A DNA stretch of 37,960 bases, from the IMG/VR virus record IMGVR_UViG_2522572021_000015, one strand, 5' to 3'. This document shows positions 21,001-27,000 of this stretch, piece by piece. Made by a program: the position numbers. The stretch comes from a virus (lineage: Duplodnaviria > Heunggongvirae > Uroviricota > Caudoviricetes). Every line of letters begins with the position of its first letter. The stretch's first letter is position 1.

Positions 21001-24000
21001 GGTCTCTTTGCTCCCCGGATCTTCATAGTCCTGTCCGTCACCTTTACGGATATACAGTCCCAGCGCCGCAGCAATACGCGCCGCTGTCAGTTCCGCATCC
21101 TCATACTCCTTAAGGGCACTGATCCGCATCAGCACCCCCGATAACATGGATGAGCCTCGCGTCTGATGCAGACGACGAGTGAACTTCAGGTGGATCATTT
21201 TTCCGGCAGCGATTTCTTTCGTATCACTCTGCCGGCCGCTGACCGGATAATTTTTATAAACCAGATATTTTTTCGGTCTTCCCCACTCATCAAGAAAAAC
21301 CCCCTGATTCAGTCCGGCGGATTCATCAGTGCGCATGGGAACAAAATCCGGCTCCATCGCCTCAAGCCAGAATGGCACTCCCGCCGTCCGTTCCAGACCG
21401 TTTCCCGCACCACTGACCATCTGCGCAAACACTTCACCATCCCGCAGCCAGGTCCGCAGCAGTAAACGTTCAAGCACAGGACGGGTATACTGCCCTGTCA
21501 CATCCGGACTCACGGACCATTCAGCCCACAAACGGCGGATATCCGCAGCCAGCTCAGCCGCCATTTCCCCGTTTTTTCGTAATGGCTGAGGCTCCACAAT
21601 AATTCCCCTGGCACCAATCACCCGCTCTTCCAGCTTGTCAAACACACCAATCACCAGGTCATGATTGATATCCAGAAAACGGGCCTGCTCCCGCAGGGAA
21701 ACCGCACCGTATTTACTGAGCTGATCAGCAGAGCGATTTTCCCGCCGGGCTTTATGTGTCCGGGTCGGTTTCACCGCCTCATAGGCCATGATTAACGCCC
21801 TTGAACGCAGTCTGGCTGCTTTCCACCCGGGGGAAAACACGCCGATCACATCATCAATAATTGCCATTAAAACCTCGCCAGTTTAAATCCCGGTTTTCCC
21901 CGCCTGCGGCTCACCATCGCGGCAAGCCTGCGTTCCCACTCCTGACGTCCGGCGCGGATCTGAGAAAGGCTTTCCAGCGTCAGTTGCTGCCCGTTGAAGG
22001 TGACAGACTTTCCCTCCAGTACGGCCATTTCCGCTTCACGGTACCGCTGTATCATTTCTCTGGCTTCTTCTGTGCTCACAACCAGCCTCCTGATGTTATC
22101 CATGGATTATCTTCCGCACGCTCCGTCCGCAGTTTTTTCTTCCGGCGACGGCGTTTTTCTGCCCCGGCCGTCAGTTCCGGGGATACCGTTTCACCAGAAC
22201 GCTCCTGCGGGAAGACGAGCCACGTTTCCCGCTGTGCCCAGTCCGGTGCGGAGGGCCAGCGGATCTTTTCGTAACCATGCAGAACGGCAAGCGCATCCGC
22301 ATAAACCAGCAGGTCAAACGCTTCGTTAGCGCCCCTGCCCGGTTTTCGCCATTTTCCGTCACTGCCGCGCTCTTCATAGGTCAGCTCATCGTAAAACCAC
22401 CGCCCCAGCCAGTCGGGAAAGTGGATATAGTTCGGCCCTGGTGTGTCACGCCACAGGGCATTATTTACACGATCCTTAAACGCATCCGTCTGAACCAGCC
22501 ACAGCGCGACATCGCCACTGGCTCTGGCACGGCGGGCACTTCTGCCGGTATTATCCGGGAAGGTTCGGTTAATCAGCCTGTCACGGCGAAGTCCATCCCC
22601 CTTGAACAGAAACACCCTGTTGCCCAGTCCGTCACTCCGGCAACGACGCCAGAAACGATAGGCGTTATCTGTCACCCCGGCTTCCCCTCCCGTATCCACC
22701 GCCATGGCCATCAGACGCATGCGCACATCCGGATCAGAAGCCAGCGGCCATGTTTTATGGAACACATCCGTCAGCAACAAATCCCAGTCCTCCGGATATG
22801 CCGCCGGATCAACCGGCAGACTTTCACCGTTGGGACTGCAGCGCAGTGAATGCCGGATGTTGTAGCGATCAACAATCCAGCGTTCCCCCTGCTCTCCGTA
22901 TCCGGTGATCTGCACAACAAAACGGCGATTTTTACCGCCCTGTACGTCAACCGTTGCCTCAATAAAACGCACACCATCCGGCACAGATCGCCGGGGAAAC
23001 GGCTCGGCACGCTGTTCAAGCAGTTCACTTTTACGCTGTTCCGTGGCTGAACGGGGCAGATAGGGTCGTCCGATATCGGTGTTCACCACCGCTTTCAGGG
23101 TCTCTTCACTGCCGGTTCGCTCATACTCTTCTTCTGCCGCCAGCAGTTTAAAAATCAGTTGTTCCCAGGTCTGAAACGCCGCAGCTGGCCCCTCCATCCA
23201 AAATGACGCAATCCGGGAGTTTCGTGGCGTTCCGGTGATACTGCCGTCCGCCGCCGCCGTTCACCTTCACGAAGCCAGATCCCCTGGTTATTCAGTTCGC
23301 GTTTCTGCTCAGGGGCAATCAGCCCGCGACAATGCGGACACATCAGACGGGCAGCCTGACCGGCAGCCACAAAATCCGGGTTATTCCGGTATCCGGTCAT
23401 GTTATCCATCACCGGCTGAAAATATTCCCCGCAGTGCGGACACGGCCAGTACCACCGGCGGCGGTCTCCCCGGTTATACAGTGACAGGATACCCGTTGTT
23501 GGCGGTGCCTCATGTGCGCCACCACAACGCCATTTGGTATCGGTGATATCCCGCCCCGGTGAACTCTCGACCAGGGTCATCCCCGAGGACATAAAGGTGG
23601 TGGTACGCTTTGAGGCCAGCGTGAAGGCATCCCCTTCCCCGTCCACGTTTTCAGGGAAACGGTCATAATCCGTCAGCGCCACACGACGGTAATCCGAAGA
23701 GGAAAAGACGGTGATCGACGGCCAGCCAATCTTCAGGAAGGAGCCGTCAAGAAACATTTTATCGTGGACGTTGTTGTCATTACGGGAAGGACTGAGGCGC
23801 TTGCTGACCTCCGGACTGTGGCGAAACGTCCTGGAAAGACGCGTTTCTGGAATGCTCACGCGCCTTCGTCTCAGTCATCTGCACCACCAGCATATCCGCC
23901 GGATCACAGATGATGCCGTACACAATCCAGCCATCAATCAGCCCTTCGGTTTTCCCGGTTCGCGCAGGTCCCACAAACACACCGCGTCATATTCACGGGC

Positions 24001-27000
24001 TGATAATGTATTAATGGGGTCAATCATATAGGGCGTCAGCGATGACTCCCACGGACCGGAAGTATTGGCTCCCCGTGGAACCCGCATATAACGCCTGATG
24101 GCTTCCGCTACTGGTAACCGGCTGGGTGGGCGAAACAGCGAGGCCACTTCGCGCCAGATATCGGATGCGCGGCTATGGCTCTCGTTCACCTGATTCACAT
24201 ATCGGCCTCATCACAACAGTCAATGACTGCCTTTTCCAGTGTGTCGCGGATCTCATCAACCACAATCTGTACTTCATTCAGTTGTGATGCGGTCCACCCC
24301 CTGTCCCTCTCCAGCCGGTCAGGCCAGGTTTCCAGTACCTGAACTATCGCTTTCACCACGACAGAAAAGGACCGCCTGACATCACTGACTGGCACAAGCT
24401 GACCAGTTTCCTGCTCAAATTTCAGTCGGTCACGTTCTGACTGGTACCATGCTTTACGCGCATGAGGATCCATTTCCTCGTTATCTACAGGCAGAGGAGC
24501 TTTCATCAGCTCGGCAAGGATATCTGTCAGTCGGTACAGTTTGAGATTGCTCTCATGACCACCGGCTGGGCTTATGTTTTTTACCCGAGCCGCAACAGTC
24601 TGTCGATGAGCACCGGATAATGCGGCCAGTTGGGAAATATTCAGATGCAGATTTTTTAATTCACGATCCATAACTCCCCCTGAAAATTATGTAAACACAC
24701 ACCAGTGATGAACAAAAAACAACCAGATTCGACACTAAAAATTTTTATTTTTCTATATATCAATAACTTACACTGGTGGTGATGGTGCCATAAAAATCAA
24801 AAAATGCGCCTTTTTCCGCGCCGCCCGCCCCGTGTTCAGGCCCACCCCACCAGGAGGACCCGCAAAATGATAATGGTTATCATTTGTAATGTAGTCCGGT
24901 TTCTTCCACCATCGCACCGGACCAGCGACTATGAGGGGACAACGCCGCGCTCCGTTAACGCGGTAAACCCCGGTGTGTATCGTTTTTGATTATCCCCGCA
25001 CACTCGCGCAGAGGAGTCTCCCTGTCGGGCTGCGGTCTCTGTTAATGAGGGAATACAGCGACGATACGGCGCATCCGCAAAACTTAGTTCAGGCACTGAG
25101 TGCGGATATAGTCCTGTGCCCCTTCCAGCTGCTTCTGCATTGTCATCAACCGTTCTCTGAGGATGAAATAATCCCGTTCAGCGGTGTCTGCCAGTCGGGG
25201 CCCGGTTGCATTATCCACGCCGGAGGTGCCGGTGGCTTCACGCACGGTACCGGAGCAGGTGGCGTTGATCCGCAGGCGCTTACGACCAGCGGCAACATCA
25301 GCACGCAGAGTTTCATTTTCAGCTCTCGCATCGGCTAATTCCCTCGAGTATTTTGCATCGAGCGCAGCAACATCGCGCTGGCGCACCTGCATATCAGTAA
25401 TGGTTGCGTTTGCCAGCTCCAGCTCTCTGGCTTTTTTATCGCGCTGCGCTTTGTAGGTGATGGCGTTATCGCGGTAATGATTCAGCCCCAGACTAAGCGC
25501 ACCACAGGCCACCAGCAGGGCAATGATGACCACACACAGAACGCGGTTCATTTCACCACCAGCGTATCTGACCGATGAAATAACCGGAGGCCATAATCAC
25601 AAACACCAGCCAGATAAGGATGAACTTCCAGGTGGATAATTTTTCAGCCATCACTCGAATCTCCCGAATCAGTTTGCTAAAATCAAACACACTTTCTCCT
25701 TTGACTTTTCCGAAGTCAGGAAACACAAAACCCCGCTTGCTGCCAACAAACGGGGTTTTTACTTTTATTCACTTAGGTTTTGCCAGTTCGCAGGATTTCG
25801 TGTTATCCGCCCGCGTTGGCCAACGTCATTTTTCAGCAAAATATTCTGCTTATCTGTCGATTCCCCAGCACGCCAGCGCGCTCTCCTGGTCACGACGGGA
25901 TACCTGACCGTAACAGTTATTTGAGCGGATACGGCAGTCTCTGCCACCGTCCTTAATCCACCAGCGAATCGCTTCACACGCTCCTCTGCGATCGCCTGCA
26001 TTAATTCGTTTATAAAACGTCGACGGGAAACACTTACCGGGGCCAATGTTGTAAGGACAGAATGACGCAATACCCGCTTTCTGGGGTTCAGTCAGTGGCA
26101 CTTTGATGTTTTTCTCCACCCATGCCAGCGCCTTATCACGCTCAATGGCGTTAACCTGGTCGCATTTTTTCTTCGACAACTTCATGCCCGGGACGACAGG
26201 TTTGCCATCCACCCTGGTGGCACCACGACAAATGGTCCAGATACCCGCACCATCACGGTATGCCGTGGTGTGGTTACCTTCTTTTTCATCCAGAAACTGG
26301 TCGAGAATATCAGGCGCAGGCGCCCCTGCGGCAATCAGCGCCAGAACGGCAGCCGACAGGCCGTATTTGATTTTGGTGTTCATGGATATTTATCAGGATT
26401 TATCGGTTCCGAATCCCTGGATATGTTAAGCCTTCACCCCACCAGTGGTGGGCACTGGCGGGTTCTTAATTTCCCCGGATGATCGTGGATTACATTCCAC
26501 CAGGAGATTACTTATGCTTATCTATCCAGCGGCAGACCTCCGTTTACAGGGACGCAGAGCACAACCATGGGATAAAACAACCACTCATAAATATCGTCCC
26601 GGTCAATATTATGACTTTCGTAAACACCCGGAACTGATCGAGACACACCTTGAGGATTTTGTTGAATATTCAGACAGACAAGCGATTCAGACCTTTTTTT
26701 CTTTTGTTAAGTGGATCAACAGCAATTCATCTGCATTCGAGAGCACGGACTGCATGTTTTCAGGAACACCAAAGGTTGATGAATACGCCCCGGTATTTGG
26801 TTGCACCCATGCGTCATCTGGCCGCTTCGAATTTTTGTTTCGCGATACGAAAATAAACCAAAATGAGCGAGCTGTCGGATGGGTACTTAACAAACTATCG
26901 CTCTACCTTCAGAAAGAACGGCCCGATTTTTGTAAAGGAACCTTTGGCATCGTTCCCCTCATGACGGAATATACCGACTCCGGCGGTAACGAGTTCACCG

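Follow-up and report, generated by a model that had tools for sequence, protein, structure and literature searches.

What does a terminase gene broken by three frameshifts record: decay of the prophage that carries it, or errors in the assembly in which it was deposited? The stretch analysed here, termed the window throughout, is a viral record of 37,960 nucleotides (nt) that is identical to positions 3357556-3395515 of the chromosome of Escherichia coli O145:H28 strain RM13514 (NZ_CP006027.1); it begins at smpB and ssrA, and the element it contains was named "Prophage 15" (ssrA-ypjA, VT1-like) by Cooper et al. 2014. Comparison of its large terminase subunit gene (TerL) with copies elsewhere on the same chromosome and in other genomes, all of it resting on deposited assemblies, indicates that the three frameshifts are probably assembly artefacts, that is, consensus errors rather than mutations in the bacterium. 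A preliminary description had leaned towards decay of a cryptic prophage and offered sequencing errors of insertion-deletion (indel) type as the alternative; the evidence favours that alternative, as the differences are indel-only, occur in a single pair of assemblies and lie inside a manually closed repeat.

The gene and the open reading frames (ORFs) into which it is divided, with lengths in amino acids (aa), are as follows.

22076-24198, minus strand: large terminase subunit (lambda gpA type); 2123 nt, one fewer than the 2124 nt of the intact gene; labelled a frameshifted pseudogene in the annotation
23938-24198, minus strand: TerL ORF of 86 aa
23780-23980, minus strand: TerL ORF of 66 aa
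23155-23859, minus strand: TerL ORF of 234 aa
22076-23197, minus strand: TerL ORF of 373 aa, starting with ATG

The proposal that four consecutive ORFs jointly cover a complete lambda-type TerL was borne out. Their frame segments correspond, at 100% identity, to residues 2-73, 74-118, 119-314 and 315-707 of an intact 707-aa protein, and all 706 of the 706 residues after its start codon are encoded across them. The RefSeq annotation, made with the Prokaryotic Genome Annotation Pipeline (PGAP), flags the gene as "frameshifted" both in RM13514, at exactly 22076-24198 of the window, and in a second strain, RM12581. As expected of a gpA-type ATPase, the intact homologue matches the Pfam family GpA_ATPase (PF05876, E = 1.8e-81); the 66-aa and 234-aa fragments match positions 32-75 and 74-247 of that profile, and a Walker A motif, GPARTGKT, lies at residues 77-84 of TerL. 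The 373-aa ORF matches GpA_nuclease (PF20454, E = 1.9e-81), as expected of the C-terminal nuclease.

The lesions were placed by alignment, over 2301 nt, to the intact TerL of strain E2863, from which the window differs by exactly three 1-nt indels and no substitutions. They are listed below with the alleles and diagnostic k-mers of the coding strand.

23979-23980, minus strand: indel 1, one G lost, GG to G (GCGGTGGTG to GCGGTGTG); indel allele GACGCGGTGTGTTTGTGGGAC, intact allele GACGCGGTGGTGTTTGTGGGAC
23844-23846, minus strand: indel 2, one A gained, AA to AAA (CAGAACG to CAGAAACG); indel allele CATTCCAGAAACGCGTCTTTC, intact allele CATTCCAGAACGCGTCTTTC
23256-23258, minus strand: indel 3, one G lost, GGG to GG (AACGGGCGG to AACGGCGG); indel allele GGTGAACGGCGGCGGCGGACG, intact allele GGTGAACGGGCGGCGGCGGACG

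Indel 1 follows codon 73, just 5' of the Walker A motif, indel 2 brings back the original frame after 45 codons, and indel 3, after codon 314, separates the ATPase domain from the nuclease domain. All three lie within 725 nt, at homopolymer runs of 2-3 nt. The preliminary description had placed the frame changes somewhat differently: its range of 23825-23850 does contain indel 2, but the change assigned to an A/T run near 23965 belongs at 23979-23980 when intact copies are aligned, and that assigned to a C4/G4 run at 23187-23190 is merely the overlap of two ORFs, the lesion itself lying at 23256-23258, where there is no such run.

The key observation on the setting of the gene is that it belongs to a long intragenomic repeat, of which two entries are needed here.

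16382-25200, no strand assigned: 8.8-kb repeat (tail, head, portal, TerL and small terminase subunit, TerS, genes), with a second copy in Prophage 09 at ~1.995-2.004 Mb of NZ_CP006027.1
19113, minus strand: site in the prohead protease/capsid fusion gene at which the Prophage 09 copy has a 1-nt deficit (frameshifted) and the window copy has the consensus

The late module recurs in Prophage 09 (ynaF-rspB) of this chromosome, where TerL is intact and identical in its DNA (WP_001077625.1, the protein of E2863); the single uninterrupted frame of ~700 aa that the window TerL lacks is thus found in this copy. Across 16382-25200 the two prophages differ by no substitutions and four 1-nt indels, three of them in the window TerL and one at 19113, and the nearest marker that distinguishes the copies (25201) is 1.2 kb from indel 1. 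The substitutions by drift that would be expected alongside genuine lesions were found neither against E2863 (0 in 2301 nt) nor against Prophage 09 (0 in 8.8 kb). The repeat also exceeds the accurate reads used for the genome (454 and 101-nt Illumina), as an artefact would predict.

Residual errors of early corrected PacBio reads are 1-nt indels, often in short homopolymers. RM13514 was assembled as a 454 and Illumina draft of 247 contigs whose repeat gaps were closed manually in silico with PacBioToCA-corrected reads of the C2 chemistry (PMC3893438), and RM12581 from a draft of 158 contigs by manual closure with PacBio circular consensus sequence (CCS) reads (PMC4032123). Error-prone finishing is thus documented for just such regions (PMC3893438, PMC4032123), again in line with an artefact. 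The two strains show no single-nucleotide polymorphisms (SNPs) relative to each other in non-repeat regions (PMC4032123). Over 49 kb, however, their Prophage 09 sequences disagree at three positions exactly, each a 1-nt event inside the 8.8-kb repeat. RM12581 alone has GGG to GG and CCCCC to CCCC in Prophage 09, which frameshift two further genes, and at the capsid site RM13514 reads CCCCC and RM12581 CCGCC against a consensus of CCGCCC, a different 1-nt deficit in each assembly. Since unique DNA holds no SNPs, several real frameshift differences within one repeat are implausible, and at least some of them are errors.

In Prophage 15 the two assemblies differ at the edges of the repeat only, and the interior, including the three TerL indels, is identical. 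At one edge the RM12581 lysozyme gene (equivalent to 25976-26411 of the window) has 29 clustered substitutions relative to RM13514; this allele, found nowhere else among 10,720 matching places in 4,259 genomes (97.5% at the next best place), suggests a chimeric consensus of paralogues and poor resolution of the repeat. Over 27381-27454, which marks the edge of the sequence that both prophages carry, RM12581 has sequence of the Prophage 09 type (25 substitutions, net -1 nt), its YdfR gene is called incomplete, and the boundary of the repeat is accordingly placed differently in the assemblies of two clone-mates. Two deletions in Prophage 09 do not fully account for a 2-nt difference in chromosome length, as the further -1 at 27381-27454 implies a +1 elsewhere. 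With an interior identical to RM13514 in Prophage 15 and edits of its own in Prophage 09, RM12581 would therefore offer no independent confirmation of the TerL lesions.

Several calibrators were examined. In ~10 kb of unique Prophage 15 DNA, three substitutions and one 12-nt indel, and no 1-nt indel, separate RM13514 from sister strains that were sequenced independently. Prophage 02 carries a further lambda-type TerL, at ybhC; the sequence is multicopy and its chromosomal site conserved. Here RM13514 and RM12581 share a private CCC to CC, and comparison with 18 other records (14 labelled O145, with RM13516 and RM12761 of the same laboratory among them) gives 2802 against 2801 nt with no mismatches. 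The tally of RM13514-private differences is five 1-nt indels and no substitutions in repeats against none and three, respectively, in unique DNA (Fisher p = 0.018); as an artefact would predict, there are other private, indel-only differences in repeats and none of 1 nt in the unique arm.

A four-way alignment of 23 kb of the late region, including E2863, O111 7-58 72A and FRIK944, provides a comparison outside this pair of assemblies. Of the two high-quality relatives, E2863 shows 57 substitutions of its own and O111 7-58 72A none, and a private indel is absent from both. The PacBio-era assembly of FRIK944 (prfC-site prophage, NZ_CP016625.1 5742772-5765958) shows 13 private indel columns, 12 of which crowd into ~1.4 kb. 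Neither these columns nor the "frameshifted" state of four of its tail genes (J, I, K and tape measure) recurs in the near-identical prophages of E2863 and O111 7-58 72A, and they, too, are likely assembly errors, judging from the alignment. Set beside the other two, FRIK944 argues that real divergence here is mostly by substitution and that assembly errors cluster. A lesion of another character occurs in nleC, a type III secretion system (T3SS) effector gene of RM13514 Prophage 09: a frameshift by 5-nt tandem duplication (TTCTA), present in both outbreak genomes and absent from RM11626-C1, where the gene is intact. With ordinary substitutions around it, this frameshift appears genuine, and the outbreak clone would then have lost NleC. 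Other candidate calibrators were set aside: the flagged genes of Prophage 13 (J and portal) and of the Prophage 09 left arm (J) have nearest relatives at only 95-96% identity, too distant for private indels to be isolated, and the short TerL of Prophage 19 owes its length to an internal deletion of ~315 nt, not to a 1-nt indel.

The lesions are confined to the two outbreak genomes. A survey of TerL across 538 complete E. coli records (759-823 places), or about 760 copies in 536 genomes, returned a 100% match to the window TerL only in RM13514 and RM12581, both from the same 2010 lettuce outbreak, and every other copy among the matches listed (~757) has intact spacing. Intermediate alleles were not seen: no record has just one or two of the indels, which would score 4233-4250 bits. 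In a collection of viral contigs, a single 37,959-nt contig of IMG genome 2582580752, presumably the window itself, is the only carrier of the three indel alleles; the intact allele is present in 57 contigs, among them another one from that IMG genome. No genome was found to combine Prophage 15 with this late module besides RM13514 and RM12581, the latter carrying the same TerL lesions, with doubtful independence in repeats. No exact match to the ORFs of 86, 66 and 234 aa that the frameshifts create, several alternative starts included, was present in collections of 153 billion genes and 15 billion proteins, a result of little weight in that the source genomes' own fragments are likewise unrecorded there and no positive control was available. 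Papers examined on O145:H28 prophages and on phage induction in RM12581 make no mention of the TerL locus.

The 373-aa C-terminal ORF was rejected as a marker of indel 3, its 1503 blocks on record deriving from a widespread truncated TerL remnant elsewhere. Many genomes of enterohaemorrhagic E. coli (EHEC; e.g. AP024924.1 and CP034806.1) carry this remnant, in a rearranged prophage that keeps only the C-terminal, 373-aa nuclease half of TerL; its protein is identical to the 373-aa ORF of the window and has a duplicated protease/capsid gene and a 93-aa ORF upstream.

A simple course of events would account for these observations. With TerL in a segment that occurs twice on the RM13514 chromosome, short 454 and Illumina reads would not have separated the copies, and closing the repeat gaps by hand with corrected first-generation PacBio reads would have left 1-nt indel errors, three of which would have stayed in the TerL of Prophage 15 and one in the capsid gene of Prophage 09. 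Later correction with short reads would presumably fail, as these reads would map better to the clean copy. The gene in the bacterium would then match that of Prophage 09 exactly and encode a complete gpA-type terminase of 707 aa. RM12581 would carry the indels since its repeat interior was not independently resolved, perhaps with RM12581 reads or a collapsed RM12581 contig filling one occurrence and RM13514 sequence the other; that the interior was patterned on RM13514 is the single assumption needed.

Whatever the status of its terminase, Prophage 15 is a genuine cryptic remnant on other grounds, for which the following features are relevant.

1267-37633, no strand assigned: Prophage 15 remnant of RM13514 (ssrA-ypjA), from the tail end adjoining ssrA to the nin region
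37634-37960, plus strand: start of an element of the insertion sequence (IS) family IS3, standing in place of the prophage early region and abutting truncated ypjA
32852-33463, minus strand: NinG gene with an internal stop codon, the same stop being present in RM8988-C1 and RM11626-C1

No int, xis, repressor or replication gene is present in the annotated prophage interval (1267-37633). The IS3/ypjA junction is common to seven independently sequenced O145 strains, and Nakamura et al. 2020 (PMC7067040) report that the ssrA prophage has lost int in every complete genome of sequence type (ST) 32. The NinG stop, being present in the independently sequenced sisters RM8988-C1 and RM11626-C1, is therefore a genuine, inherited lesion. 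It is from the deletion of the early region at IS3 and from this shared stop that the remnant status follows, and because the early region is gone, Prophage 15 is non-inducible. The preliminary description was thus right that the prophage is a remnant, on the evidence of the IS3 deletion and the NinG stop, but its TerL lesions, private, indel-only and inside a repeat, are better explained as errors. Unlike RM13514, the two sisters have an HK97-type packaging and head module at ssrA, and the lambda-type late module of RM13514 therefore arrived by recombination. The IS3-family element is itself called "frameshifted" in RM13514 and RM12581 (1215 nt) and is intact in sister strains (1214 nt); the RM13514 element differs from the sister copy by one extra C plus 24 substitutions, and therefore represents a different IS variant or a mosaic at the same junction.

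The principal rival is genuine recent decay, in which recombination first made the late module of Prophage 15 uniform with that of Prophage 09 and three slippage-type 1-nt indels then arose in the outbreak clone, leaving TerL dead but without phenotype, as the identical Prophage 09 terminase would be able to act in trans. A number of points favour this rival and weigh against an artefact. RM12581, a separate isolate with its own reads, has the same three indels, and its Prophage 15 is not a plain copy of that of RM13514, the different lysozyme allele and the shifted edge at 27381-27454 being signs of partial construction from its own data; were the repeat interior also built from those reads, the indels would be real. 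The marker at 25201 is near enough that reads of at least 1.5 kb could in principle assign the indels to the correct copy, and the disagreement at the capsid site could be a real difference between copies, imperfectly captured. In a remnant there is no selection for packaging and TerL is free to decay, the sisters' different late module at ssrA points to a module acquired recently, which may have gathered changes private to the lineage, and the same genome has in nleC a frameshift that looks genuine. Against decay stand three indels without a substitution in 2.3 kb, and four in 8.8 kb between copies, where good assemblies diverge mainly by substitutions (57 to no private indels in E2863, three to none in the unique arm); the crowding of three of the four indels into 725 nt; and the absence of the lesion from ~757 other copies. 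The same pair of assemblies has further private 1-nt indels in multicopy phage genes and disagrees inside the repeat, and the lysozyme allele of RM12581 points to a chimeric consensus. Real decay would, in addition, need clone-mates that truly differ by more frameshifts in the repeat, and a second terminase with a private deletion. On balance we judge genuine decay to be unlikely. Its most explicit form would have the 2010 lettuce-outbreak clone inactivate the terminase of an int-less ssrA remnant through three slippages in a stretch of 725 nt, very shortly after gene conversion of 8.8 kb with Prophage 09, whose identical terminase would stay available for packaging either element in trans. 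We hold this form, too, to be unlikely; if true, it would illustrate decay that is locally clustered and strongly biased to indels in a prophage module only just homogenised.

An intermediate history, in which one indel is real, as a first inactivating hit, and the others are errors, or the reverse, is permitted by the same data as error and decay and has nothing specific in its favour; with three events of one class, equally private and in one 725-nt patch, and with no record holding one or two alone, we consider it very improbable. Functional recoding, either by programmed ribosomal frameshifts or through separate ATPase and nuclease polypeptides, might be suggested by the position of indel 3 between the two domains, by the ATG start of the 373-aa nuclease ORF and by the calling of an identical 373-aa product as a gene in many genomes. 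That product, however, elsewhere represents the truncated remnant in its rearranged context and not a split gene, and indels 1 and 2 isolate the Walker A segment, with the N-terminus on one side and the remaining ATPase domain on the other. Every other copy listed (~757 places) is a single ORF; there is no conserved frameshift signal because the frameshift itself is not conserved. With all other copies in a single frame, recoding is effectively excluded by the comparative data, and we give it next to no credence.

The gene and its lesions can be set beside known systems. The lambda gpA-type TerL of VT1-Sakai (Sp15, H0024) and of many EHEC lambdoid prophages has the same two-domain architecture (PF05876 plus PF20454), and VT1-Sakai, CP-1639 and several Stx2a phages are 99.7-99.9% identical in DNA to the window TerL. 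Gene order, too, is that of gpA-type relatives (a DUF1441 gene in the position of the small subunit, TerL, a gpW-like gene and portal), with two differences: the three frame-breaking 1-nt indels that set the deposited window apart from intact gpA-type TerL, and a partner gene that encodes a DUF1441 protein instead of the Nu1 of lambda. The lesions resemble the repeat errors of early hybrid or PacBio-only assemblies in being indel-only, at short homopolymers, confined to repeats, private and clustered (compare FRIK944). They are unlike typical assembly errors in that two deposited genomes share them, which would require the second to have been finished on the first in repeat interiors.

Prophage 15 likewise resembles the pool of defective prophages in EHEC (O157 Sakai; Asadulghani et al. 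2009, cited in PMC7067040), with an int and early region lost, IS insertions, the effector gene nleG7 and near-identical prophages that possibly help in trans. In O157 Sakai, the prophage defects were reportedly established by Asadulghani et al. in 2009 on Sanger-finished sequence and by experiment. Unlike those defects, the TerL lesions are known here from deposited sequence alone, the remnant itself being real.

Under either account the biology is little altered, and the "frameshifted" label already stands in RefSeq. If the indels are artefacts, Prophage 15 encodes an intact terminase, yet with its early region gone it stays non-inducible; should they be real, the identical terminase of Prophage 09, in the same cell, masks the loss. 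Caution is nevertheless warranted, as assessments of prophage completeness and tallies of pseudogenes and strain-specific genes for RM13514 and RM12581 inherit such lesions. The outbreak strains RM13516 and RM13514 have been reported to have the most strain-specific genes (Carter et al. 2022, PMC9144400), and part of this excess could consist of genes split by indel errors.

The genes around TerL complete the description of the late region.

24195-24671, minus strand: DUF1441 gene in the small-terminase position, intact, its protein identical in Prophage 09 and many strains
20365-21867, minus strand: portal gene (lambda B type), intact
10674-11416, minus strand: gpK (C40 peptidase), frameshifted by a 1-nt deletion near 11122-11124 relative to every compared copy

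The earlier statement that the long genes J, tape measure and portal are intact holds; gpK, however, is also frameshifted and NinG has its internal stop. The gpK deletion sits in a divergent stretch where the alignments do not distinguish a real mutation from an error. The 'tail assembly protein T' gene at 15146-15448 is called "incomplete" by PGAP here and in all related strains, which is probably the normal gpG/gpGT arrangement with its programmed -1 frameshift and no lesion.

Towards the tail end of the prophage, a 956-nt segment (2989-3944) is present here and in Prophage 19 and absent from the closest prfC-site relatives; a 291-aa ORF inside it (3049-3924, minus strand) has no Pfam match. 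The segment is adjoined by nleG7 (2174-2824), and a published prophage listing names espS for Prophage 15. Two plus-strand ORFs without Pfam or PADLOC matches, one of 210 aa between lysozyme and YdfR (26514-27146) and one of 590 aa between the HNH and NinE genes (34562-36334), may be moron genes; the latter has a 12-nt insertion (35077-35088) relative to sister strains.

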